27,980 bases of DNA, from positions 746 to 28,725 of the forward strand of contig CAYYWT010000001.1 in the NCBI GenBank assembly GCA_964475435.1. Reading direction: 5' to 3'. This DNA comes from an uncultured Eubacteriales bacterium (lineage in GTDB: Bacteria > Bacillota > Clostridia > TANB77 > RGIG9151). Positions 2,641 through 26,197 of the stretch are shown in pieces. The translations under genes were made by a program, and so were the position numbers. The notes beneath the pieces were generated by a model. It did not search any database, was not told the origin of the DNA, and saw only the letters and a program-made list of their open reading frames with translations. Position 1 is the first letter of the stretch; each line of letters begins with the position of its first letter.

Positions 2641-2885
2641 ATAAGAAGTGGCTGTAAAAAAGTCGTCTATCATTAAAATGAAGCGTTGTACTGTACCAAG
2701 AGAAACAAAAATTGCTTTTTTGTCCCTCTATGTAATTCATATTTTAAAGGTGTCCAGGATGTGAGCGTAAGCTCCGTTCCGTCCTTTAACTTAGCACTAC
2801 ACTTTCCACAAAAAATATTTTTGTTGAACGAGGTACAGTACGACGCTTTATGGCTTTTGCGACTTTTTTTACAGCCACTTCTTAT
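2641..2885 (+). repeat. full copy (B) of the long-hairpin repeat; its outer stem doubles as a bidirectional terminator-like hairpin between the DUF1858 gene and dprA
   Basis: Outer inverted repeat ATAAGAAGTGGCTGTAAAAAAGTCG (2641-2665) pairs with CGACTTTTTTTACAGCCACTTCTTAT (2860-2885) with a one-nt bulge. Nested stems: 2688-2697/2832-2841, 2704-2712/2817-2825, 2716-2723/2808-2815 and 2744-2750/2783-2789. Tip hairpin is GAGC-GTAA-GCTC at 2763-2774. T-runs flank both sides (rc of 2634-2640; 2886-2889). Confidence 0.95.
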
Positions 2886-2891
2886 TTTAGG

Positions 2892-3089
2892 CTACTTATT
2901 GATTTGAGAAAGTATTTCGTTTACATCTACACCGTGTACTTCACAAGCTTCAAGTAGCGTTTCCATTTGAGCGGAAGGGCACCCAAGACAATGCATTCCC
3001 ATTCCCATAAGAATAGGAGCAGCTTTCTCTCCGCACATTTCCATAATTTCACCGATTGTCATATCAGCAGTAATTTTTTCCATTTTCAT
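2892..3089 (-). CDS. DUF1858-type small redox-disulfide protein (hybrid-cluster-protein-associated family)
   Basis: 65 aa, MKMEKITADMTIGEIMEMCGEKAAPILMGMGMHCLGCPSAQMETLLEACEVHGVDVNEIL. The HCxGCP motif and overall pattern are typical of DUF1858 proteins. SD is AGGCGAG/GAAAGG upstream (rc ~3093-3101). Confidence 0.7.
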   Translation of the reverse strand: MKMEKITADMTIGEIMEMCGEKAAPILMGMGMHCLGCPSAQMETLLEACEVHGVDVNEILSQINK

Positions 3090-3172
3090 CTCGCCTTTCT
3101 AACATAATATGCTAGTATTATATAACGTTTTTAAAAAAATATAAAGTATTTAAAGAAAAAATAAGAAAAGTG

Positions 3173-3201
3173 TAGACAAATGTTAAAAGTTGGAATATAA
3201 T
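3173..3201 (+). promoter_or_regulatory. candidate sigma-A promoter for the 3250 gene (and possibly the downstream locus)
   Basis: TAGACA (3173-3178), 17-nt spacer, TATAAT (3196-3201), 48 nt upstream of the ATG at 3250. Confidence 0.5.
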
Positions 3202-3249
3202 TCTAGTAAATTAATGCATTAATGTTATAAAATGTAAAGGAGGTGACTT

Positions 3250-3567
3250 ATGAAGAAAAAAGTTGCTACAATCTTTACGTTTTGTGTTTTGATGACGACG
3301 GTATCGTTTGCAGCAACATACCCTACCATTATGAATAATTTAAAAAATGCTTTGACTCAAATTCAAGCTTGGCTTATTACTATTGCTACTCCGGCTGCTG
3401 CGATTGGCGTTATTACCGGTGTACTTATAAAAAAATTTAGTTTCGGAGATACTGAAAGAATGCTTACCGGAAGAAGGCTTATTCGATCATGCTTCGTTTC
3501 TTATGGCGTTGTTGTCGGAATTGATCTTATATTAAAGGCGATTACGACTTTTGTTACAAAGAAATAA
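3250..3567 (+). CDS. small secreted two-helix membrane protein, VirB2/TrbC-pilin-like topology
   Basis: Strong SD AAAGGAGGTG (3237-3246). Sec-type signal peptide MKKKVATIFTFCVLMTTVSFA|AT. Mature ~84 aa has two hydrophobic helices (AWLITIATPAAAIGVITGVLI and CFVSYGVVVGIDLILKAITTFV) joined by a basic loop KKFSFGDTERMLTGRRLIRS. The family call is inferred from this architecture only. Confidence 0.55.
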   Translation: MKKKVATIFTFCVLMTTVSFAATYPTIMNNLKNALTQIQAWLITIATPAAAIGVITGVLIKKFSFGDTERMLTGRRLIRSCFVSYGVVVGIDLILKAITTFVTKK

Positions 3568-3573
3568 TTTTTT

Positions 3574-3804
3574 AGAGACTGTAAAAAACTCATTTATTAT
3601 TAGAACAAAGCAATGTACTGTACCAAGAGAGACAAAAATTGCTTTTTTGTCCCTCTATGTAAAACATATTTTAAAGGTGCCCAGGATGTGAGCGTAAGCT
3701 CCGTTCCGTCCTTTAACTTAGCACTACACTTTCCACAAAAAATATTTTTGTTGAGCGAGGTACAGTACATTGCTTTATGAATTTTGTGAGTTTTTACAGT
3801 CTCT
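3574..3804 (+). repeat. full copy (C) of the long-hairpin repeat; its outer stem plus T7 forms a terminator-like structure between the 3250 gene and the 3830 gene
   Basis: AGAGACTGTAAAAAACTCA (3574-3592) pairs with TGAGTTTTTACAGTCTCT (3787-3804) and is followed by TTTTTT (3805-3810). Core 3616-3768 differs from copy B core 2689-2841 at 5 of 153 positions. Tip hairpin GAGC-GTAA-GCTC is at 3690-3701. Confidence 0.95.
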
Positions 3805-3829
3805 TTTTTTAATTAAAGGAGAAAAGAGT

Positions 3830-4651
3830 ATGGAAAAATTAGAGATAATTATTGCGACTCTTATGGTGCTTAAAGAGGCGGGGGAAGAAATTTCAGATTG
3901 GTTTTCGGTATCTATATCCGAAGAATTTTATTCAGCTCTTGATAAAATTACTTTTTTAACAAATAAATCACTTGGACTTTCCGGCAATGGTACGATTACC
4001 GATGCGACTTCTACTCTAGGAGAAGCTACTTGTGGGATTGGTAATTTGATAGTTTGGGGAATTTTACTTTATTATTGCTTTTGCAGTTTGTTTCAATATT
4101 TTTTGTCTAGGGAAGTAGAAATTCCATGGAAAGTTTTTATCAGAAGTATTATTTTCGGAATTTTAATTAATTCATCTTTTTTTATTTGCTACCAAGCAGT
4201 TTATTTTGCTGAAAATATTACGTTATATATTAGTGAGTATTGTGGCGGTAAAACTTCTTTCTCTTATATGGAGACTTTTAGTGATGAATTAGACTTAGAA
4301 ACTGATGAAGGACTTGAAGAAATAAGTATTTTTTCTATGAATGAACTGATAAAAGTATCGGCATATTTTATGACATTTGTTATGAGTGTTACTTTAGGTG
4401 GAAGATTTATTATTATAAAAGCTTTAATAATTTTATCTCCGATATTGTTAGCTTTTGGTTGTAGTAAATTAACTGAGAAAATTTTAACTAAAAGTGGTAA
4501 ATTATTTTTAAAACTTTTGGGTTACCAAATAGTGGTTGTAATAGTTTTAGAAATTTTTAATAATTTAAGTTTTTCAGGAGATGCAATTTTAGAGATTTTG
4601 TTTATTTCTACAATGTTAGTTGCAATAAAATTTGCGAAAAAAATATGCTAA
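3830..4651 (+). CDS. polytopic (5-6 TM) membrane protein, VirB6/TrbL-like
   Basis: ATG at 3830 follows SD AAAGGAGAAAAG (3815-3826). The 20 upstream codons of the tracked ORF (3770-3829) lie inside repeat C. About 95 aa of hydrophilic N-terminus is followed by helices such as GNLIVWGILLYYCFCSLFQYF and FIRSIIFGILINSSFFICYQAVYF. The segment IIKALIILSPILLAFGCSKLTEKILTKSGKLFLKLL resembles the VirB6/TrbL aP-x-lf-x-T-x-f-x-W region. Family call is an inference. Confidence 0.45.
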   Translation: MEKLEIIIATLMVLKEAGEEISDWFSVSISEEFYSALDKITFLTNKSLGLSGNGTITDATSTLGEATCGIGNLIVWGILLYYCFCSLFQYFLSREVEIPWKVFIRSIIFGILINSSFFICYQAVYFAENITLYISEYCGGKTSFSYMETFSDELDLETDEGLEEISIFSMNELIKVSAYFMTFVMSVTLGGRFIIIKALIILSPILLAFGCSKLTEKILTKSGKLFLKLLGYQIVVVIVLEIFNNLSFSGDAILEILFISTMLVAIKFAKKIC

Positions 4652-4712
4652 AACTATTAATTAAATTTACACTAAAGCCGATTAAAAAATTGAGAAAGGT
4701 AGGTAGGTTAAT

Positions 4713-5555
4713 GTGAAAATTTCAAGAGTGAGGCACGTAGTAATAACATGTATTATATTTTTGATTATAATTGCACTTATAATAACGGTGTATAATAATC
4801 GTTTGGAGGCTATTGCCAGAAATACTGAAGAGTATGTTAATAGGGTAGTTGCTACTGAAGATATTACTCCGGGGACTGTTATAACTGAAAAGAATGTTAA
4901 ACTTGTACAAATACAAGATGTTGTTAAGGCTGATGGGTTGGTATATAGACTAAATCAAAGAGATCAAGAAAGAGAAACTGTTGATGCAACTAATGAATAT
5001 AAAAATATGCTTTTAGCTGGTAAAATTAGTCCGTCTGCTTCATCGGACGATAGATGGGCTGTTGGTAAAACTGCTATTAGTACAATACGTAAAGGTGAAT
5101 TACTTATTGTTGATGACTTGAAATTGCCTGAAGATATGACTATGAGCAATGAAAGAATATATAGTATTTCTTTTGATTCATCTACGACTGGTGGATATAA
5201 TGTAAGAGTCGGAGATAAGATTGATATTTGTTTACTATATAATGATAATGAAAAAACTATAAAAGAATATCAAAATTTGGAAAAGAATAAGGCTATTGAT
5301 ATTGTTTTAGCTAAAAAAGAAATTATAGACATTAGGGATGAGGCAGGAAATAGTCAAGTTAATAATTCGGCGGTTGTTCCGGGTTATATATGTTTTAAGT
5401 TAACTTATGATGAAATTAATAAAGTTGAACTTGCTAAGAGACAAGGAAAAGTGTTTGCGGGAATTGTTGAAACATATCTTGATGATGCACATGTTGAAAC
5501 ATTTATGGATGGTGTAGAGTTGCCTACATTCGAAACTGATGATAGTAACTTTTAA
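4713..5555 (+). CDS. cpaB: Flp pilus assembly protein CpaB/RcpC-like (N-terminal TM plus SAF domain)
   Basis: GTG start at 4713 (the ATG at 4711 is out of frame and hits a stop immediately). SD is GAAAGGTAGGTAGG at 4694-4707. TM helix VVITCIIFLIIIALIITVY is followed by the SAF-like stretch RVVATEDITPGTVITEKNVKLVQIQ. Confidence 0.65.
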   Translation: MKISRVRHVVITCIIFLIIIALIITVYNNRLEAIARNTEEYVNRVVATEDITPGTVITEKNVKLVQIQDVVKADGLVYRLNQRDQERETVDATNEYKNMLLAGKISPSASSDDRWAVGKTAISTIRKGELLIVDDLKLPEDMTMSNERIYSISFDSSTTGGYNVRVGDKIDICLLYNDNEKTIKEYQNLEKNKAIDIVLAKKEIIDIRDEAGNSQVNNSAVVPGYICFKLTYDEINKVELAKRQGKVFAGIVETYLDDAHVETFMDGVELPTFETDDSNF

Positions 5556-5590
5556 TTAAATTGTGTAGTTTAGTAATAATTTGTTAAATG

Positions 5591-5612
5591 GGGCGGGGAT
5601 TTTTCACCGCCC
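5591..5612 (+). other. GC-rich intercistronic stem-loop without a U-tract
   Basis: GGGCGGGG (5591-5598) pairs with CACCGCCC (5605-5612), 7 of 8 bp, loop ATTTTT. It is followed by A6, not T, so it is not a canonical intrinsic terminator on either strand. It is conspicuous in otherwise AT-rich DNA. Confidence 0.6.
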
Positions 5613-5642
5613 AAAAAATATATGTTGGAAAGGAAGATATTT

Positions 5643-6488
5643 ATGAACGATAGAAATCCAAAAGTTATTTCTGTTGGAAGCGTAAAACATGGTCAAGGTG
5701 TTACTACACTTGCGTATAATTTGGCATATAAGTTATCTACTTTGTTACCGAAGAAAATACTTATTGTTGATGTTAATTATTTATTTAAGGAAATGAGCTA
5801 TTTAGCTGAACAAAATAATAAAAACGGGATAGATGATTTAATATCTATGGTAAAAACTCAAGAATTGACTCAAGATATTTTTATGTTACATACTGAGGAG
5901 ATAAATAGAAATTTAAGAGTTATTAATTCTACTCAAATTGAAACGCTAGATTATATAAAGAAAAATGATAAGTATTTAATAAAAGTTTTAGATGAAGCAA
6001 AGAAATATTTTGATATTATAATAGTTGATGCATCTGCTGGTGTTAAAAATTCGCTTACTACTGAACTATATGAATATAGTGATGTGTTTGTAAATATCCT
6101 AACTCAGAATGCGTATACAATAGATTGGTATACAAAGCATGAAAATTATAAAGATGATGATAAGATAGTAAATGTAATTAATATGTATGAGGAAGATATA
6201 TATCCTGATTACGGTGATATAAGGAAAGAGTTTAAACTTGAAAATATGGTGTTGCTAAGATATTCTAAGTTATTTAGACATTTCTATAACCAGAAAATTT
6301 TGGACCCTTTTTATAAGACTGAAGATTTATTTAATAATGATTTTTCGCAATTAATTGTAAAAATTGGAGAGAAAATAGAGTTAAAAGATTTATCTAAATT
6401 GGATATTGTAAATGACAATATGTTAATTGATGTAAAATATAATGATAAGAAAAAAGGATTTTTTAGCCGATTGTTTGGCAAAAAATAA
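5643..6488 (+). CDS. ParA/MinD-fold TadZ/CpaE-like protein with a degenerate Walker A
   Basis: Preferred ATG is 5643, 6 nt after GGAAAGGAAG (5627-5636); the alternative is 5622. P-loop region is VISVGSVKHGQGVTTLAYNLA (5676-5708 encodes GSVKHGQGVTT). Walker B-like segment is DIIIVDASAG. It sits immediately upstream of the TadA-type ATPase. Confidence 0.6.
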   Translation: MNDRNPKVISVGSVKHGQGVTTLAYNLAYKLSTLLPKKILIVDVNYLFKEMSYLAEQNNKNGIDDLISMVKTQELTQDIFMLHTEEINRNLRVINSTQIETLDYIKKNDKYLIKVLDEAKKYFDIIIVDASAGVKNSLTTELYEYSDVFVNILTQNAYTIDWYTKHENYKDDDKIVNVINMYEEDIYPDYGDIRKEFKLENMVLLRYSKLFRHFYNQKILDPFYKTEDLFNNDFSQLIVKIGEKIELKDLSKLDIVNDNMLIDVKYNDKKKGFFSRLFGKK

Positions 6489-6508
6489 ACTTTTCGGAGG
6501 GGAGAGTT

Positions 6509-7990
6509 ATGGCGGCTCAACAAGTGTTTTTGCAAGATATTATTAATTCAATAAAAGAGATAATGGAAAATTACAAGGAAGATAAGGAATTGAAGCTTTT
6601 ACATCAAAAGAAGATTGACCAAGCGGCGGCAGGTGGGATAGAAGCGAAAAGTTATGTAAAAGAAGAAATAATGAAAGTTTGTTTAAAAGATTTGAATACT
6701 AAGATTACTGAAGAAAACATAGACGATTTAATAAAACAATATCATGTTAATTATTATGAAAATATATATGGTGATGATCCTGAAGATAAATTTTATCAAA
6801 TCTTTGAACATATGATGTTGTCTGAAAATGATGAATTTGAAGTGAAGATGGAAAGACTTGTTCAAATAATATATCAAGAGTTGTACGGATTAGGCGTAAT
6901 TGATGAACTATGCGAAGGACATATTGATGAAACTGGGGTAAATGGTAAAGATTATATTTGGATTCAAGTTGGAGGTCTAAAACGTCAAATTAAAAAATTG
7001 CATTTCCAATCTCAGGCTGTTTTACAAAAGAAGGTTTCTACAGCTATAAGTTTTGATAGTAAAAGTGATATAACGGCGAGTGAACCGATAGTTTATTGCC
7101 AAAGAATGAATGGAAGCCGTGTTACGGCTGTTATTCCTCCAATAGCGAAATATCCTATCTTAAATATTCGTCATTTCCATTTAGCAAATGTTACGAAGTA
7201 TGATTTGGTAGATAAGGCTACATTAACTGATGATGCTGTAAGGTTTATTGAGTTAGTTTTTAAAGGCAGACCTAATTTCTTGATTATAGGTCAACAAGGT
7301 AGTGGTAAGTCTACATTACTTAGAGTTTTATTAAATGAAGTTTCGGATGCTATCGGTATCGGTACTATCGAGAATATGTTTGAGCTTAATTTAGATGATT
7401 ATTACCCTAATAAAAACGTAATTGCATTGCAGTCTACTGAAAAGTTCCCGGCTGATAAGTTATTTGAATTGATGCTAAGACAAAACAGAGATATTGTACT
7501 ACTTGGAGAAATTCGTTCTTCTAATGAGGCGGTAGAAACTATTAATGCGATGTTGCGTCAGTGTCGTGGTTCAGCGGCTACATTCCACAGTTCTTCTCCT
7601 ACTCGTGCGGTGCATGATTTGAGGAATTTATGTATGCGTAGTTCACAGTATAAAGATTTCTTAACAGCTCAATTCGACGTAGCGGATGCTATTGATTTAA
7701 TACTTGAGGGAAGACTTGACTATGAAACAGGTAAGAGGTATATAAATCGTATATCTGTAGTTGAAGCGAATGATGAAGATTATAAGTTTGAAGTTAATGA
7801 TATATTTAAGTACAATCACGACAAAAAGGAATTAGAACCAGTTCAATGTGTTTCTGATAAATTTATGGAAAAGTTATTGGATTATGGAATGCCGATAGAA
7901 AATATTGCTAAAATAAAAGCTATTTTTAATGAAAAAGTAAGAGATGTTGATAATACACAAAAAAGTAAGAAGAAAAGTGAAGAAAAATAG
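6509..7990 (+). CDS. tadA: TadA/CpaF-family secretion ATPase (VirB11/GspE superfamily)
   Basis: SD GGAGGGGAG (6497-6505). Walker A is GQQGSGKST (7289-7315). Walker B region is RDIVLLGEIR. His-box-like segment is GSAATFHSSS. Also has GVIDEL and the usual CpaF N-terminal domain. Confidence 0.85.
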   Translation: MAAQQVFLQDIINSIKEIMENYKEDKELKLLHQKKIDQAAAGGIEAKSYVKEEIMKVCLKDLNTKITEENIDDLIKQYHVNYYENIYGDDPEDKFYQIFEHMMLSENDEFEVKMERLVQIIYQELYGLGVIDELCEGHIDETGVNGKDYIWIQVGGLKRQIKKLHFQSQAVLQKKVSTAISFDSKSDITASEPIVYCQRMNGSRVTAVIPPIAKYPILNIRHFHLANVTKYDLVDKATLTDDAVRFIELVFKGRPNFLIIGQQGSGKSTLLRVLLNEVSDAIGIGTIENMFELNLDDYYPNKNVIALQSTEKFPADKLFELMLRQNRDIVLLGEIRSSNEAVETINAMLRQCRGSAATFHSSSPTRAVHDLRNLCMRSSQYKDFLTAQFDVADAIDLILEGRLDYETGKRYINRISVVEANDEDYKFEVNDIFKYNHDKKELEPVQCVSDKFMEKLLDYGMPIENIAKIKAIFNEKVRDVDNTQKSKKKSEEK

Positions 7991-8007
7991 AAGGGCAGGG
8001 AGATATA

Positions 8008-8964
8008 ATGGATGGAAATGTATTACAAACTGCCGATATTATGACTAAGTTGGGGAGCAGTTTATTAATTTTTATTGTGGTAGCAATTTTTATTTTGGTT
8101 GTAGTTGTAGTGTACATAGCGTATGTTGAAAAAAGGAATAGTTCGTGGCTTAATCAAAGACAAAGTGCGATTAAGGCTGTTTATTCGTTAAAAAATATAC
8201 CGTTTTTGTATGCTATTCAAACTAGAATTGCTAATAAATTTGCGATTACCAATACAGGAACACGTCAAGAAAATGAAAAATATGCGCTTTATGTTATGGC
8301 GTTTATTTGTATAATGGCTATAGGGATAATTTGTGGATTATGGCAATTTGTTAATCAGTATCCGTATGCAATAATTTTGTTATTGGCGATTGGAATTTCT
8401 ATCCCATGGATGTTGTTTAGTATATTTTATGAAGCCCAACTAGCCAAAATGATTAAACAGCTTCCTCAAGCGATAGACGAGTTTGCGAGCTCATACAGAA
8501 AATCTAATAAGGTATTTAATGCGTTAAAAGATTCATATCAATATATGCCAAAGGTTGTAGGAAAAGAATTTGAAAGATTATATAAATCTTATAATATTGA
8601 TTTCGAAGATGGTGTAGAGTATTTTAGAGAGAGAATAAAAAATGATTGGGCAGGTATTTTTGCAAGTCTACTTCTAATTAATTATACCAAAGGCGGAACT
8701 ATTATATCACAATTAGATGATTTAAATACTGAGATTGAAAATGATATAATTGCTAAAGATAGGGTTAGAAGTAAAATGCTTGGTTTTAAGTTAGTTGCGT
8801 TATCTAGTATGTTACTTATTGTATTGGTTATTTTCGCTAATATGATGATGTCCGAATCCGCTAAAGAGTATTACATGAATGTTAACGGTCAACAAGAAAT
8901 AATTTTAGCTTTAGCGGTAGGATTTATAACATTTTTATGTATGCTATTGGTAGAAAAATTGTAA
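8008..8964 (+). CDS. tadB: TadB-like inner-membrane platform protein (T2SS-F domain)
   Basis: N-terminal TM, two central TMs, a cytoplasmic helical T2SSF-like block (LPQAIDEFASSYRKSNKVFNALKDSY...EFERLYKSYNIDFEDGVEYFRERI) and C-terminal TMs. Position directly after the ATPase matches Tad loci. Confidence 0.7.
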   Translation: MDGNVLQTADIMTKLGSSLLIFIVVAIFILVVVVVYIAYVEKRNSSWLNQRQSAIKAVYSLKNIPFLYAIQTRIANKFAITNTGTRQENEKYALYVMAFICIMAIGIICGLWQFVNQYPYAIILLLAIGISIPWMLFSIFYEAQLAKMIKQLPQAIDEFASSYRKSNKVFNALKDSYQYMPKVVGKEFERLYKSYNIDFEDGVEYFRERIKNDWAGIFASLLLINYTKGGTIISQLDDLNTEIENDIIAKDRVRSKMLGFKLVALSSMLLIVLVIFANMMMSESAKEYYMNVNGQQEIILALAVGFITFLCMLLVEKL

Positions 8965-8981
8965 AGAGGTGATATTAAGAA

Positions 8982-10151
8982 ATGGCAACGAGTATTATAA
9001 TGAGTTTAATTATTGCAGCAATTATAATTTTAGTGCTAACATTATTGGTTTTGTGTATAAGACAACCTCAACAAGCTAAAATGAGAAATGACAAAGTTAC
9101 GTTGGAAATGCTTTCTTATTCGCCTATTTTTAAGAAAGCCGTTGATGCGATTATCCCGCCGGCTGAAGATAGAGAATTTAGGAAAAACGAAAGACTTATA
9201 AGTGATTCTGGTTATAATATGTCTATGAGAACATTATATTTCCTGAAACTTGTAATCCCGATTATGCTGTTAATTATATTTTTGTCTATTTATTTTATTA
9301 ATAGACAAGTTTATGTTGATGCAGTTATAACCGATAGCTTGACAAAAAATGTTGATGTGCTCGGTAGTAGTGCAAATGAAAAAGAAAAAACGAGTGAAGA
9401 GAAAAGTGAGTTTGAGCAAGCAAAACGTGATACGTATGATGTTGTTAATAGTTTTGTAGATAAACAAATTTTAAAAAGCGAAGATGCTATTGCTGTTAAA
9501 CAAGCTATTCAAGAAGCTTTCTTAAAAAATAATTTAGCGACTGAGTCTGATGTTTATTATCAAACGGAAGAAATGTACAATAAAATGCTTCAGGTAGAAA
9601 AAGCAAAGCAAATAAATCCGGTTACAATAATATTTATTGTCTTAGCTTCTTTAGTTGGTTTTATCGTGCCTGATGTTTTCTTAACATTGGCAAGGATGAT
9701 TAGATACCAGTCGTTTGATAATGAAATTATTGCGTTAGAAATGTTGACGATTTTGGTTGGTTCTATTGAGAATGTTACGGTAAAAGAAATTTTAAGAATT
9801 TTATCATTAAACAGTAAAGCTTTTAAGAAGAATTTCGAAAAAGCATTGCTTGAATATCCCATTGACTTTGAACAAGCGTTAATTAACTTAGGAGATAGTA
9901 GTAAAAATAAAGATTTCCAAGCTCTTATTTCTACATTAAGACAATGTGCTACATCAGATAAGTATTCAGCGCTTCAAACTCTTCAAAGAAGAAGAATTAG
10001 TAGAAAAGAGTACAGAAAACTTATGGAGGAGAAAAAAATTGAAACAAAAATGTACATTGGATTTATATTGTTAATTCCTGTATTATTCTTCTTGGCTAAG
10101 TTATTGTTATCTCCATGGCAAGATTTGATGAATAGTAGTGGATTGATGTAA
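8982..10151 (+). CDS. tadC: TadC-like inner-membrane platform protein (T2SS-F domain)
   Basis: N-terminal TM, second TM at LKLVIPIMLLIIFLSIYFI, a coiled/charged linker, then a T2SSF-like block (FDNEIIALEMLTILVGSIENVTVKEILRILS...FEKALLEYPIDFEQALINLG) and a terminal TM. It is a paralogous partner of the preceding gene. Confidence 0.65.
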   Translation: MATSIIMSLIIAAIIILVLTLLVLCIRQPQQAKMRNDKVTLEMLSYSPIFKKAVDAIIPPAEDREFRKNERLISDSGYNMSMRTLYFLKLVIPIMLLIIFLSIYFINRQVYVDAVITDSLTKNVDVLGSSANEKEKTSEEKSEFEQAKRDTYDVVNSFVDKQILKSEDAIAVKQAIQEAFLKNNLATESDVYYQTEEMYNKMLQVEKAKQINPVTIIFIVLASLVGFIVPDVFLTLARMIRYQSFDNEIIALEMLTILVGSIENVTVKEILRILSLNSKAFKKNFEKALLEYPIDFEQALINLGDSSKNKDFQALISTLRQCATSDKYSALQTLQRRRISRKEYRKLMEEKKIETKMYIGFILLIPVLFFLAKLLLSPWQDLMNSSGLM

Positions 10152-17347: not shown

Positions 17348-18781
17348 ATGAAAAAATTTGATACGAAGGTTCAACATTTAAAATATAAAGTGCTAAGAGA
17401 AGTAATTAAGAAAGCTGATGCTGATGATTTGCAAAATGTTTACCGCGACGTACCTAATATTGTTGTGCCGGGTCCTAAAGCTAGTATGAGATGTTGTATA
17501 TATAAAGAGAGAGCTATTGTTCAAGAGAGAATTAAAATGGCGCTTGGCGGAGATAAAGAAAATCCAAATGTTGTTGAGGTTATAGATATTGCTTGCGATG
17601 AATGTCCTATTGAAGGAATGTTGGTTACTCAAGCGTGTCGTGGTTGCATTGTTAACAGATGTACGGAGGTTTGCCCAAGAGGTGCTATAAGTATTGTTAA
17701 TAAAAAAGCTGTTATTGATAAAGATAAATGTATAGAATGTGGATTATGTACTAAGGCTTGCCCTTATTCCGCTATAATTGCTCAAAAGAGACCTTGTGTG
17801 AATAGTTGTAAGGTAAAGGCTATTAGTATGGGAGAAGATAAAAAGGCTGTAATAGATAATGATAAATGTATATCTTGCGGTGCTTGTGTTTATCAATGCC
17901 CATTTGGTGCTATTGTGGACAAGTCTTTGATTATGGATGTTTTGAAGATACTAAAAGAATCAGATGATAATAAGAATTATAAGGTATATGCTGTTATTGC
18001 ACCTTCTATTGTAAGCCAATTTAAATATGCTAAAATAGAACAGATAATTACAGGTATTAAGAAACTCGGATTTCACAATGTGGTTGAAGCTGCGCTTGGT
18101 GCGGATATTACTTTACATCACGAATTGGGAGAGTTAAAAGAAAAAGGGGTTATGACTACTTCTTGTTGTCCATCGTTTGTTATGTTTATTGAAAAGAATT
18201 TCCCTGAATTAACTAAATATATTTCGAGTTCTGTTTCTCCTATGGTTGAAACAGCTAAGTTAATTAAAAGGTCTGAACCTAATGCGAAGGTTATCTTTAT
18301 CGGACCTTGTTCGAGTAAAAAACATGAGTACAAGCTTCCTAAGACTGAAGGTGCTATTGATAGTGTTTTATCTTTTGAGGAATTACAGGCGTTCTTTGAC
18401 GCTAGAAATATAGATATTGCTTCTTTAGAAGAGTCCTCTTTAGATAATGCATCTTATTACGGAAGAATATTTGCAAAGTCAGGCGGTATAGCTAAGGGAG
18501 TTCGCGAAATAGGGGAGAGTATGGGACTTGATGTAAAACCTATTGCTATGAGTGGAATTGATGAATGTAGAGCGGCTTTATTGAAATTAAAAGCTAATAA
18601 AGCAGTTGAGAATTTCTTTGAAGGAATGGCTTGTGACGGGGGTTGCTTAAATGGAGCGCTTTGCTTAAGTCATGGACCTAAAAATGCGGCTGATGTAGAT
18701 AAATATGGTGAAGATGCAAAAGAAAAGACCATTGATAATTCTGTAAAATTATATGAAATGAGTTTAAATAAATCTGAATAA
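17348..18781 (+). CDS. [FeFe]-hydrogenase with N-terminal ferredoxin-like 4Fe-4S domains (HfsD-like)
   Basis: Preferred ATG is 17348, 8 nt after AGTGAGGA and 1 nt after the upstream stop. The tracked start at 17327 would overlap the previous gene. 4Fe-4S motifs: CIECGLCTKACP and CISCGACVYQCP. Canonical H-cluster motifs are TSCCP (18158-18172), GPCSSKK and MACDGGCLNG. Confidence 0.85.
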   Translation: MKKFDTKVQHLKYKVLREVIKKADADDLQNVYRDVPNIVVPGPKASMRCCIYKERAIVQERIKMALGGDKENPNVVEVIDIACDECPIEGMLVTQACRGCIVNRCTEVCPRGAISIVNKKAVIDKDKCIECGLCTKACPYSAIIAQKRPCVNSCKVKAISMGEDKKAVIDNDKCISCGACVYQCPFGAIVDKSLIMDVLKILKESDDNKNYKVYAVIAPSIVSQFKYAKIEQIITGIKKLGFHNVVEAALGADITLHHELGELKEKGVMTTSCCPSFVMFIEKNFPELTKYISSSVSPMVETAKLIKRSEPNAKVIFIGPCSSKKHEYKLPKTEGAIDSVLSFEELQAFFDARNIDIASLEESSLDNASYYGRIFAKSGGIAKGVREIGESMGLDVKPIAMSGIDECRAALLKLKANKAVENFFEGMACDGGCLNGALCLSHGPKNAADVDKYGEDAKEKTIDNSVKLYEMSLNKSE

Positions 18782-18788
18782 AATTTAG

Positions 18789-18920
18789 AGAAAACTGTAA
18801 AAAGCTTCAAAAATGAAATATTATTCTTTGCTTCGTTAAACAAAAATATTTTTGTTAGATGTATGATATCAAGGTGAAGTATAATGATTTATGCCTATGC
18901 AAAAGCTTTTTACAGTTTCT
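18789..18920 (+). terminator. long terminator-like hairpin after the hydrogenase operon; a core-less relative (D) of the repeat family
   Basis: AGAAAACTGTAAAAAGCTT (18789-18807) pairs with AAGCTTTTTACAGTTTCT (18903-18920) and is followed by TTTTAT. It shares CTGTAAAAA/TTTTTACAG termini, AAAATGAA, TTTATGC and the apical palindrome AAACAAAAAT|ATTTTTGTT (18838-18856) with copies B and C. It lacks their core. Confidence 0.6.
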
Positions 18921-19013
18921 TTTATCTAAATAGTTTGATACATTAGTTATAAATATAGTCGAAGTTTTGCGTTTTAAATTAAACGTAAAATTTTTTATTA
19001 ATTTGCAAAAATA

Positions 19014-19042
19014 TTTGCTAATTGTAAAAAAATTTGTTACAA
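19014..19042 (+). promoter_or_regulatory. candidate sigma-A promoter with extended -10 for the def cluster
   Basis: TTGCTA (19014-19019), 17-nt spacer, TGtTACAAT (TG at 19034-19035, -10 at 19037-19042). Confidence 0.55.
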
Positions 19043-19086
19043 TGTGTAATAGATTATGGATAATTATATGATAGAGGTGGAAAGTT

Positions 19087-19530
19087 TTGGCATTAAGAGA
19101 GATTAGAATACTTGGAGATGAAATTTTAAGAAAGAAATCAAGAGTCGTAAAAGAAGTTGACGATAAAGTCATAGAATTGATAAAAGATATGAAAGATACT
19201 ATGATTGAATATGACGGAGTAGGTATTGCTGCGCCTCAAGTTGGAGTGCTAAAAAGAATAGTAGTCGTATTAAACGGAAAGAAAATGGTTACGCTTATAA
19301 ATCCGGTTATAAGCGAACGTGAAGGTGAAGAAGTAGATGTTGAAGGTTGCCTTAGCGTAAAGAAAAGGACTGTTTCTGTAAAAAGACCTACCAAAATAAA
19401 AGTTGATGCGTTAGATGAAAACGGTAATGAAATTAGTTTTATTGCCGAAAATTATTATGCGAGAGAAATTTGCCACGAAGTGGATCACTTGGACGGAATT
19501 TTAATTGTGGATAGAGAGGAATGCGAATAA
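19087..19530 (+). CDS. def: peptide deformylase
   Basis: TTG start at 19087 follows AGAGGTGGA. Motifs GVGIAAPQVG, EGCLS and CHEVDHLDG. Confidence 0.95.
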   Translation: MALREIRILGDEILRKKSRVVKEVDDKVIELIKDMKDTMIEYDGVGIAAPQVGVLKRIVVVLNGKKMVTLINPVISEREGEEVDVEGCLSVKKRTVSVKRPTKIKVDALDENGNEISFIAENYYAREICHEVDHLDGILIVDREECE

Positions 19531-25511: not shown

Positions 25512-26108
25512 ATGTTTAGAAAAATTATTGTTTCTATTGTCGGATTATATATGAGATGTTGGTTTAAAGTTGATTTGGTTAATTATGAAAGATTTGAGAA
25601 GATAAAAACCGGTTGTATTTTAGCTCCGAATCATATTTCGGCTTGGGAAACGGTTATGATGCCGGCGCTTTCTAAAAAGGTAATGTATATGATGGCTAAA
25701 GAAGAAATTTTTAAAAATAAGTTTTTTGGTTGGTTTTTAAGACAAATGAAGGCGTTTCCTATTGCTCGTAAGAAAAATGATCTTGGTGCGATTAAAACTT
25801 GCGTAAAGTTGCTTAAAGATGGAAAGTCTATTTGTATGTTCCCGGAAGGAACTAGAAGTAAAGACGGAACTATGAATTTTAAAACTGGTGTTGCGATGAT
25901 TGCACATTCTGCTAAAGTGCCGGTTGTTCCTGTGGGAATTGTTGCGGAAGATAATTTTAAGTTTAGATCTAGGGTACATATTGTTTATGGAGAACCTATT
26001 TATTTTACTGATTACTATGATAAAAAGATAAACAAAGAAGATTTGATTAATATGACTGAAAAAGTAAAAGCTGGGGTTATTAAGGCTATAGAATTAAAAA
26101 AAGTTTGA
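25512..26108 (+). CDS. plsC: 1-acyl-sn-glycerol-3-phosphate acyltransferase
   Basis: Acyltransferase blocks PNHISAWE (an HX4E variant of HX4D), FPEGTRS and VPVVPVGI. cmk-plsC adjacency is common in Firmicutes. Confidence 0.8.
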   Translation: MFRKIIVSIVGLYMRCWFKVDLVNYERFEKIKTGCILAPNHISAWETVMMPALSKKVMYMMAKEEIFKNKFFGWFLRQMKAFPIARKKNDLGAIKTCVKLLKDGKSICMFPEGTRSKDGTMNFKTGVAMIAHSAKVPVVPVGIVAEDNFKFRSRVHIVYGEPIYFTDYYDKKINKEDLINMTEKVKAGVIKAIELKKV

Positions 26109-26116
26109 TTGCTTTT

Positions 26117-26197
26117 AAAAAAGAGGCTGTAAAGGACTCAAAAACATAAAGTATTACTTTATATTTTTGAAAAATGAGTTTTTTGCACCTCTTTTTT
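26117..26197 (+). terminator. long-stem intrinsic terminator after plsC; a short relative (E) of the repeat family
   Basis: GAGGCTGTAAAGGACTCA (26123-26140) pairs with TGAGTTTTTTGCACCTC (26175-26191), using G-U pairs on the plus strand, and is followed by T6 (26192-26197). The inner hairpin is ATAAAG/CTTTAT. Its termini resemble copy C (GACTGTAAAAAACTCA ... TGAGTTTTTACAGTC). Confidence 0.65.

Follow-up and report, generated by a model that had tools for sequence, protein, structure and literature searches.

In the Bacillus cereus group, bcr1 is a mobile repeat of ~155 bp with compensatory changes (Okstad 2004; Klevan 2007), and the summary given in PMC3184786 describes it as a non-coding intergenic repeat of Firmicutes whose distribution varies between close strains, whose compensatory changes keep its fold, and which bears direct repeats of 5 bp and folds, cruciform-like, into two stem-loops. 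The pneumococcal BOX, RUP, and SPRITE repeats are small, AT-rich, interspersed stem-loops that cluster and insert into one another, SPRITE resembling a Rho-independent terminator near gene 3' ends (PMC3049150). [quoted passage not shown] Here we describe a hairpin element present in two full copies, B and C, within a 28-kb stretch of DNA (27,980 nucleotides, referred to as the window) from an uncultured Eubacteriales bacterium (contig CAYYWT010000001.1). B and C are probably full copies of a non-coding, palindromic, non-autonomous, MITE-like mobile repeat of ~223 bp that belongs to an uncultured low-GC Clostridia lineage. The element is an unnamed addition to the known class of small palindromic mobile repeats and not a novel RNA gene, and what makes it stand out is its nested build, its seat within terminator hairpins, and the strong conservation of its base pairs.

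The likeness to bcr1 is one of description; unlike bcr1, the element studied here folds as a single long rod, which is nested in a second hairpin that itself lies within a terminator stem. From the pneumococcal repeats it differs in host and, presumably, in sequence; whereas SPRITE consists of an 18-bp duplex and a U-rich tract, a 223-bp hairpin is found here between the halves of a terminator stem, with orthologous sites that are empty in relatives. With the Correia elements it has in common the MITE organization, the terminal inverted repeats, and the long hairpin. Correia elements measure about 100 to 155 bp and duplicate TA on insertion; their hairpins are substrates of RNase III, and they can carry promoters.

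A repeat search of the window aligned positions 2628-2868 with 3555-3795 as a direct repeat at 87% identity over 241 nt without gaps, and a profile built from the family matched B and C over its full length (E about 1e-73), in keeping with an earlier reading of the letters of this stretch (the sequence-only reading), which had described the two copies as direct repeats. The full composite element of copy B extends over 2652-2874 of the plus strand (profile E 1.6e-73), reads CTGTAAAAAAGTC...GACTTTTTTTACAG, and consists of a left arm (2652-2686), a core (2687-2841), and a right arm (2842-2874). Copy C, also on the plus strand, occupies 3579-3799 (profile E 1.5e-73), with its left arm at 3579-3613, its core at 3614-3768, and its right arm at 3769-3799. 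Full elements are 221 to 223 bp in size, with a G+C content of 34 to 36%. The cores of B and C are identical at 150 of 155 positions, which agrees with the near-identity of about 97% claimed before. The arms match less well, at 26/35 and 24/33 positions; this amounts to about 74%, as opposed to the 67% that the sequence-only reading had given for a slightly different span, while its statement that the arms are diverged but paired held. All four of the compensatory segments it had quoted were recovered in place, with gtcg/cgac in B versus ctca/tgag in C and gcgtt/gacgc in B versus gcaat/attgc in C. Its placement of both copies at transcription-unit boundaries was also correct, as copy B lies between the stop codon of a DUF1858 gene and the promoter of dprA, and copy C between the stop codon of a pilin-like gene and the ribosome-binding site of the next gene.

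The element is built as two nested layers, a 155-bp core at the tip of an outer hairpin, and the whole composite is enclosed by the two halves of a short purine/pyrimidine stem with a T-run after it, which places it within an intrinsic terminator. From the outside inward, copies of the window type are composed of a clamp, an outer stem, an asymmetric internal loop (about 12 nt versus 8 nt), a 9-bp inner stem, and the 155-nt core; the clamp is short and variable, pairs a purine side with a pyrimidine side, and lies beside an A-run or a T-run. The ends of the outer hairpin form the inverted pair CTGTAAAAAACTC/GAGTTTTTTACAG and those of the core the inverted pair TGTACTGTACC/GGTACAGTACA, and outer element and core alike start with TGTA and end with TACA. 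The 155-nt core of B (2687-2841, plus strand) is bounded by TGTACTGTACC and GGTACAGTAC(G) and holds the apical hairpin GGATGTGAGC-GTAA-GCTCCGTTCC, which is 28 nt long, has a GTAA loop, is invariant among copies, and has a G+C content above the genome level.

Around B, the left clamp half AAAATAAGAAGTGG (2638-2651) pairs with the right clamp half CCACTTCTTATTTT (2875-2888), and a 24-nt perfect inverted repeat is found at 2638-2661/2865-2888; the A-run at 2635-2641 is a T-run on the minus strand, the strand of the DUF1858 gene and dprA. Around C, on the plus strand, the left clamp half is AGAGA (3574-3578), and the right half, TCTCT with its T-run (3800-3810), is directly followed by the ribosome-binding site of the next gene. 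Terminator-like traits, i.e., a stem and a U-rich tract near a gene 3' end, are thus present at B, C, and a shorter window copy, D, all of which have a clamp and, on the strand that carries the upstream gene, a T-run; they are not found at every copy in a second genome described below.

To compare orthologous sites, the corresponding loci of relatives were fetched via DprA homologues, and the percentages given for them are DprA identities to the window. All fetched relatives share the gene order pilin-like gene, DUF1858, dprA, topA, and at each of four sites (A, B, C, and one downstream of topA) some genomes have the element while others are empty. At site A, where the window has a truncated copy, L057/L058 (93%), L053/L054 (88%), L060/L061 (77%), and L059 (73%) are empty. 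Site B is filled in the window and, with the element inverted, in L057/L058, while L053/L054 and L060/L061 have a plain terminator there and L059 a short core-less hairpin. Site C is filled in the window and in L053/L054 and is taken by a plain terminator in L060/L061 and L059; the site downstream of topA, which lies outside the window, is filled in L057/L058 and, by an internally deleted copy, in L053/L054, whereas L059 has a plain terminator rich in G+C there. Folding of the empty sites gives canonical intrinsic terminators, such as AAAAGGGC-TTG-GCCCTTTTATTTTTTT at the empty B site of L053/L054 and AGAGAGG(C)-loop-(G)CCTCTCT plus T-run at the empty C sites of L059/L060.

When L057:1-54 and L058:1-54 were compared with window positions 2652-2888, B was found inverted between identical flanks, with the B-specific arm variants kept, which points to an in-place inversion of the palindromic element in the 93% relative. 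In the copy downstream of topA in L053 (L053:4214-4340, also in L054), the arms are intact and the core is cut to ~53 nt by a symmetric central deletion. Core-less or core-reduced hairpins with the same termini are otherwise represented by window copies D and E, by L010:1771-1822, and by site B of L059. Relative to local transcription, copies occur in both orientations, about seven sense and three antisense by our own tally. The orientation of the core relative to the asymmetric arms, on the other hand, is identical in all 10 informative copies, and therefore the composite spreads as one unit; the same constancy excluded the independent insertion of cores into pre-existing hairpins as the cause of the diverged arms. 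Several contigs of the relatives start or stop inside a copy, as is expected because the element is a repeat. Altogether, these comparisons show that the element is gained, lost, inverted, and eroded over short evolutionary scales.

A scan of species-representative genomes for TGTACTGTACC, followed by 120 to 150 nt and then by GGTACAGTAC, returned 27 loci that fall into two groups, the window type and a sister family. Outside the window, the window type is present in an uncultured Eubacteriales metagenome-assembled genome (MAG), CAYZJZ01, with five full copies and one short derivative in four contigs. Copies of the element adjoin unrelated housekeeping genes, such as RNase R, rdgB-like, and phosphorylase genes. 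The sister family is a ~165-nt repeat, of which 12 Clostridia MAGs from Lachnospiraceae, Syntrophomonas, Clostridium, and relatives carry 23 copies in total, with as many as 7 in a single MAG. Its ends are sharp, reading CTAG-TGTACTGTACC...GGTACAGTACA-CTAG with unrelated sequence further out, and in 7 of the 23 copies the TAG stop codon of the neighboring gene lies inside the flanking CTAG.

IS630 is described as inserting at TA within CTAG and duplicating the TA (Tenzen & Ohtsubo 1991, as cited in PMC2170065). A likeness to IS630/Tc1-mariner elements is seen in the CTAG on both sides of the sister family and in the TA on both sides of the core in beta-type copies of the window family; at the same positions elsewhere, the flanking dinucleotides are complementary and not direct repeats (CG/CG in B, CA/TG in C, TG/CA in L010, and CA/TG in L024:1006-1227). 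IS5-type elements make a 4-bp CTAG duplication, with which the palindromic CTAG of the sister family, taken by itself, is also compatible.

Further searches added few members. The window-family-specific pattern had no match in a metagenome scan, and the general pattern retrieved mostly unrelated palindromes and only 4 additional sister-family copies. Neither family was matched by blastn against plasmids and phages; of two scans of viral contigs, one was without a match and the other gave 51 single chance matches, 0 of them with the partner terminus adjacent. No lone termini were detected in the fetched loci, and a literature search on the terminal sequence returned unrelated primer sequences only.

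B and C each fold as one long hairpin, with calculated RNA energies of -102 and -87 kcal/mol (z -12.7 and -10.5, respectively), and similar folding results were obtained for the opposite strand and with DNA parameters. In the window family (two organisms, seven full copies), both sides have changed in 10 of 78 pairs, a number that none of 500 shuffles reached and that compares with 1 to 2 in slid controls. The claim that the stems covary is upheld, as is that of arms changing faster than the core while remaining paired. The inner stem is hypervariable yet paired, with, by our reading, five double changes in 9 bp among the seven copies; one transition pair arose independently in both sub-lineages, and about five single changes are uncompensated. 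The sister family also folds as one rod, with 96% of cells paired and 22 of 50 pairs changed on both sides (0/500 shuffles as high; slid controls far lower). Its bulges and a few unpaired motifs are conserved, and therefore its arms have not simply been homogenized. Counts of G-U versus A-C mismatches are biased as a test of the acting strand, the structures having been predicted on one strand.

In one Syntrophomonas MAG, a 10-nt stretch of the 3' arm (sister-family alignment columns ~97-110) in four copies, L004, L013, L022, and L023, matches the reverse complement of the 5' arm almost exactly, whereas the sister copies L003, L009, and L021 of the same MAG are unpaired there. The patch turns an unpaired region into an 11-bp helix and shifts the calculated apical energy from -14 to -34 kcal/mol. 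Because the whole 10-nt stretch changed at once, it points to hairpin-templated correction, and at least part of the apparent compensation could therefore arise without stepwise selection. Quasi-palindrome template switching is a mechanism known from work in Escherichia coli; here, such correction would be visible at work in a wild repeat family.

The element thus displays the generic traits of a MITE, as it is non-coding and shorter than 300 bp, has terminal inverted repeats, is dispersed in multiple copies, and is polymorphic for presence and absence at orthologous sites. We envisage that the core descends from a DDE-type MITE, sharing its ends with the ~165-bp CTAG-flanked repeat common in Lachnospiraceae and Syntrophomonas, and that it landed once in the TA found at the outer hairpin repeat's tip. 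From then on, core and outer hairpin would have spread together, either entering terminator hairpins downstream of genes or travelling as part of them. When transcribed, the element would merely lengthen the terminator hairpin, and this would explain why either orientation is tolerated. Its pairing may be kept jointly by purifying selection for a compact hairpin and by hairpin-templated (quasi-palindrome) correction, the two probably acting together, and a compact hairpin that joins the halves of a terminator stem is a possible role that does not depend on orientation. An unnamed repeat family thus documented breaks the assemblies of genomes of gut and anaerobe Clostridia, and the natural pairs of filled and empty terminators allow the effect of a 220-nt insertion on termination to be tested.

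Several observations weigh against this account. All clamps are of a generic AAAAGRGG/CCYCTTTT kind, and they could travel with the element instead of being the host terminator; moreover, the MAG copy L024:1006-1227 has its stronger T-run on the strand opposite to the flanking genes. A target-site duplication cannot be demonstrated for the composite because every flank is palindromic, a direct repeat being indistinguishable from the hairpin; in comparison with IS630/Tc1-mariner elements, none is discernible. No transposase and no full-length insertion sequence with these ends was found among the fetched loci and viral contigs. The interiors of the window and sister families share no detectable similarity, and the kinship of the two is inferred from little, namely identical 11-nt termini, which the search itself imposed, equal length, a short further match (CGTTCA) at one end, a rod-like fold, and the class of the hosts. 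Finally, the conserved bulges and the invariant apical hairpin with its GNRA loop would fit a specific role as RNA or in protein binding, for which the present account has no need.

In most copy pairs the arms are less alike than the cores (cores 87-100%, arms 69-97%). The arms of B form a long branch relative to every other copy, a divergence already present in the 93% relative, and the arms of C share 88% identity with those of MAG copy L024:1006-1227. The cores of B and C lie 927 bp apart, and gene conversion between them, which is possible but not shown, would also produce this pattern.

Among the other explanations, one would make the pairing a requirement of mobility itself, the element moving as folded single-strand DNA or by an unknown enzyme that homes to hairpin tips such as those of terminators. 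We consider this improbable. In every case, the two halves of a hairpin stem enclose the composite, with no discernible direct-repeat duplication, but this location could simply mirror where insertions are tolerated. The rod stays paired through the differences between genomes of the sister family, taken to reflect active lineages, and both orientations are found; outer element and core also share their TGTA starts and TACA ends. The perfect terminal inverted repeats and CTAG or TA flanks of the sister family, however, suit ordinary DDE cut-and-paste elements, whereas IS200/IS605 and REP/RAYT elements are without terminal inverted repeats, and no gene for an HUH or Y1 transposase was present among the window open reading frames (ORFs) scanned with Pfam (positions 2-23250). 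It is doubtful, too, that the repeats represent a distinct class of mobile hairpins, in which pairing over the whole length would be required for propagation as folded single-strand DNA or RNA, with active homing into the tips of terminator hairpins by an undescribed enzyme or template-switch route and a remodeling of terminators across Clostridia.

The sequence-only reading had taken the conserved core and covarying stems for a selected structure instead of a MITE. That contrast is not supported. Stems that covary are on record for bcr1, itself a mobile repeat (PMC3184786), and covariation by itself does not tell an RNA gene from such a repeat. The conclusion did not withstand the comparison of genomes either, since the element is multicopy in at least two of them, is present or absent at orthologous sites, has truncated and core-less derivatives, and occurs in both orientations, with an inversion of B. 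The earlier interpretation is therefore partly supported, and the observation on the sequence itself is confirmed. In the same vein, a dedicated structured RNA, either cis-regulatory or the product of a small RNA gene, whose fold is selected for a host function, is unlikely. Such an RNA would accord with helices that covary in the window and sister families, yet the two strands fold about equally well, and both orientations to transcription are used. The 28-nt apical GTAA hairpin is invariant and G+C-richer than the genome, and the core is conserved more than the arms, as might be expected of an RNA, but truncated, internally deleted, and core-less derivatives exist. While copies do lie at transcription-unit boundaries, orthologous sites of relatives are empty, a plain terminator serving instead, and copies adjoin unrelated housekeeping genes such as those named above. 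The statement that the core resembles no known RNA consensus stood, as neither the window nor any of 18 related loci reached the gathering score of an Rfam family, and relaxed E-values gave only chance-level, sub-threshold matches. Given the two orientations, the flipped B, and the equal folding of both strands, a strand-specific RNA function is therefore unsupported.

Much less probable still is that the compensatory changes came about without selection, as by-products of quasi-palindrome correction and gene conversion in an otherwise neutral repeat. The 10-nt stretch of four Syntrophomonas copies, which in a single step became the opposite arm's reverse complement, is of the expected kind, as are the in-place inversion of B and the identity between B and C, which peaks in the center and falls at the edges as gene conversion would have it; however, asymmetric internal loops and bulges are conserved across genomes, so that no wholesale homogenization of arms has taken place. 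A templated correction or conversion process may well operate within a mobile, MITE-like repeat as favored here. That B and C are recombination sites bounding an excisable 0.9-kb cassette of the DUF1858 and pilin-like genes, as the sequence-only reading had proposed for direct repeats flanking both genes, can be dismissed, as the gene order is unchanged in relatives without B (L053/L054, L060/L061) or without C (L059, L060/L061), the stretch between B and C therefore being no mobile cassette, and no recombinase gene lies nearby.

Other described classes were also considered and rejected. REP/RAYT palindromes are 20 to 40 bp long and G+C-rich, with a GTAG or CGTC head (PMC3733652); an element of 223 bp with 34 to 36% G+C and an absent GTAG/CGTC head does not belong to them. 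A retron msr/msd was ruled out by the lack of a reverse transcriptase domain in the Pfam-scanned ORFs; beyond the local genes, the window as scanned to 23250 carries housekeeping genes and no transposase, integrase, or reverse transcriptase domains. Elements of the IS200/IS605 type have no terminal inverted repeats and have different subterminal hairpins at their two ends; here, the ends are mutually inverted repeats, and the whole element is one hairpin. Integron attC sites have RYYYAAC...GTTRRRY core sites and a nearby integron integrase, whereas the ends of the element are off this consensus and no integrase domain was detected in the scanned ORFs. The core as a coding sequence was rejected because frames are disrupted by indels or stops in many sister-family copies and differences within the window family are mostly non-synonymous. 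Open frames that start M-Y-C-T cross the core on both strands, at 3613-3780 (+), 3600-3770 (-), and 2686-2907 (+), and do the same in the MAG copies.

Altogether, the window holds five family members, A to E. Copy A is truncated, keeping the left arm but no more than the initial ~30 nt of the core, at 1440-1507 of the plus strand (profile E 9.8e-16), and abuts the dprA stop codon. Copy D, a short core-less hairpin at 26117-26197 (fold z -6.5) whose termini read CTGTAAAGGACTC...GAGTTTTTTGCAC and which has a T-run and is clamped by AAAAAAGAGG/CCTCTTTTTT, directly follows a gene ending at 26108; its termini are akin to the outer arms of B and C, it escaped detection by the sequence profile, and its place in the family is tentative. 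Copy E (18795-18915), reading CTGTAAAAAGCTT...AAGCTTTTTACAG, is a degenerate, internally deleted relative with a weak profile match (E 0.018) that retains the core-like stretch AAACAAAAATATTTTTGTT. It lies between a hydrogenase-like gene ending at 18781 and a doubtful 105-amino-acid minus-strand ORF at 18855-19172, which overlaps its right half and has no Pfam match.

Two side observations concern the surroundings of the sister family. A shared hairpin, GCGCTCCATCCAGACAG...CTGTCTGGATGGAGCGC, adjoins three of its copies (L005:2952-3015, with a similar flank in L007 and L008) and may be a second repeat family. At L016:3473-3522, 50 nt upstream of a full copy, a lone CTGTAAAAAGCTT terminus with a small hairpin may be the remnant of another member.

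The local order in the window is topA (minus strand, up to 1336), copy A, dprA (minus, 1507-2583), a dprA promoter-like site, copy B, the DUF1858 gene (minus, 2892-3089), divergent promoter-like sites, the T4SS-pilin-like gene (plus, 3250-3567), and copy C, beyond which lie a gene for a 273-amino-acid protein and Tad-like genes (RcpC/CpaB, AAA ATPase, and T2SSE ATPase). An exact-protein look-up had no record of the DUF1858 and pilin-like proteins. A Tad-like pilus operon (3250-10151) is headed by a 105-amino-acid protein that matches T4SS_pilin weakly, at E 0.0023 and short of the Pfam cut-off, and the arrangement of this operon head beside DUF1858, dprA, and topA is kept in relatives.

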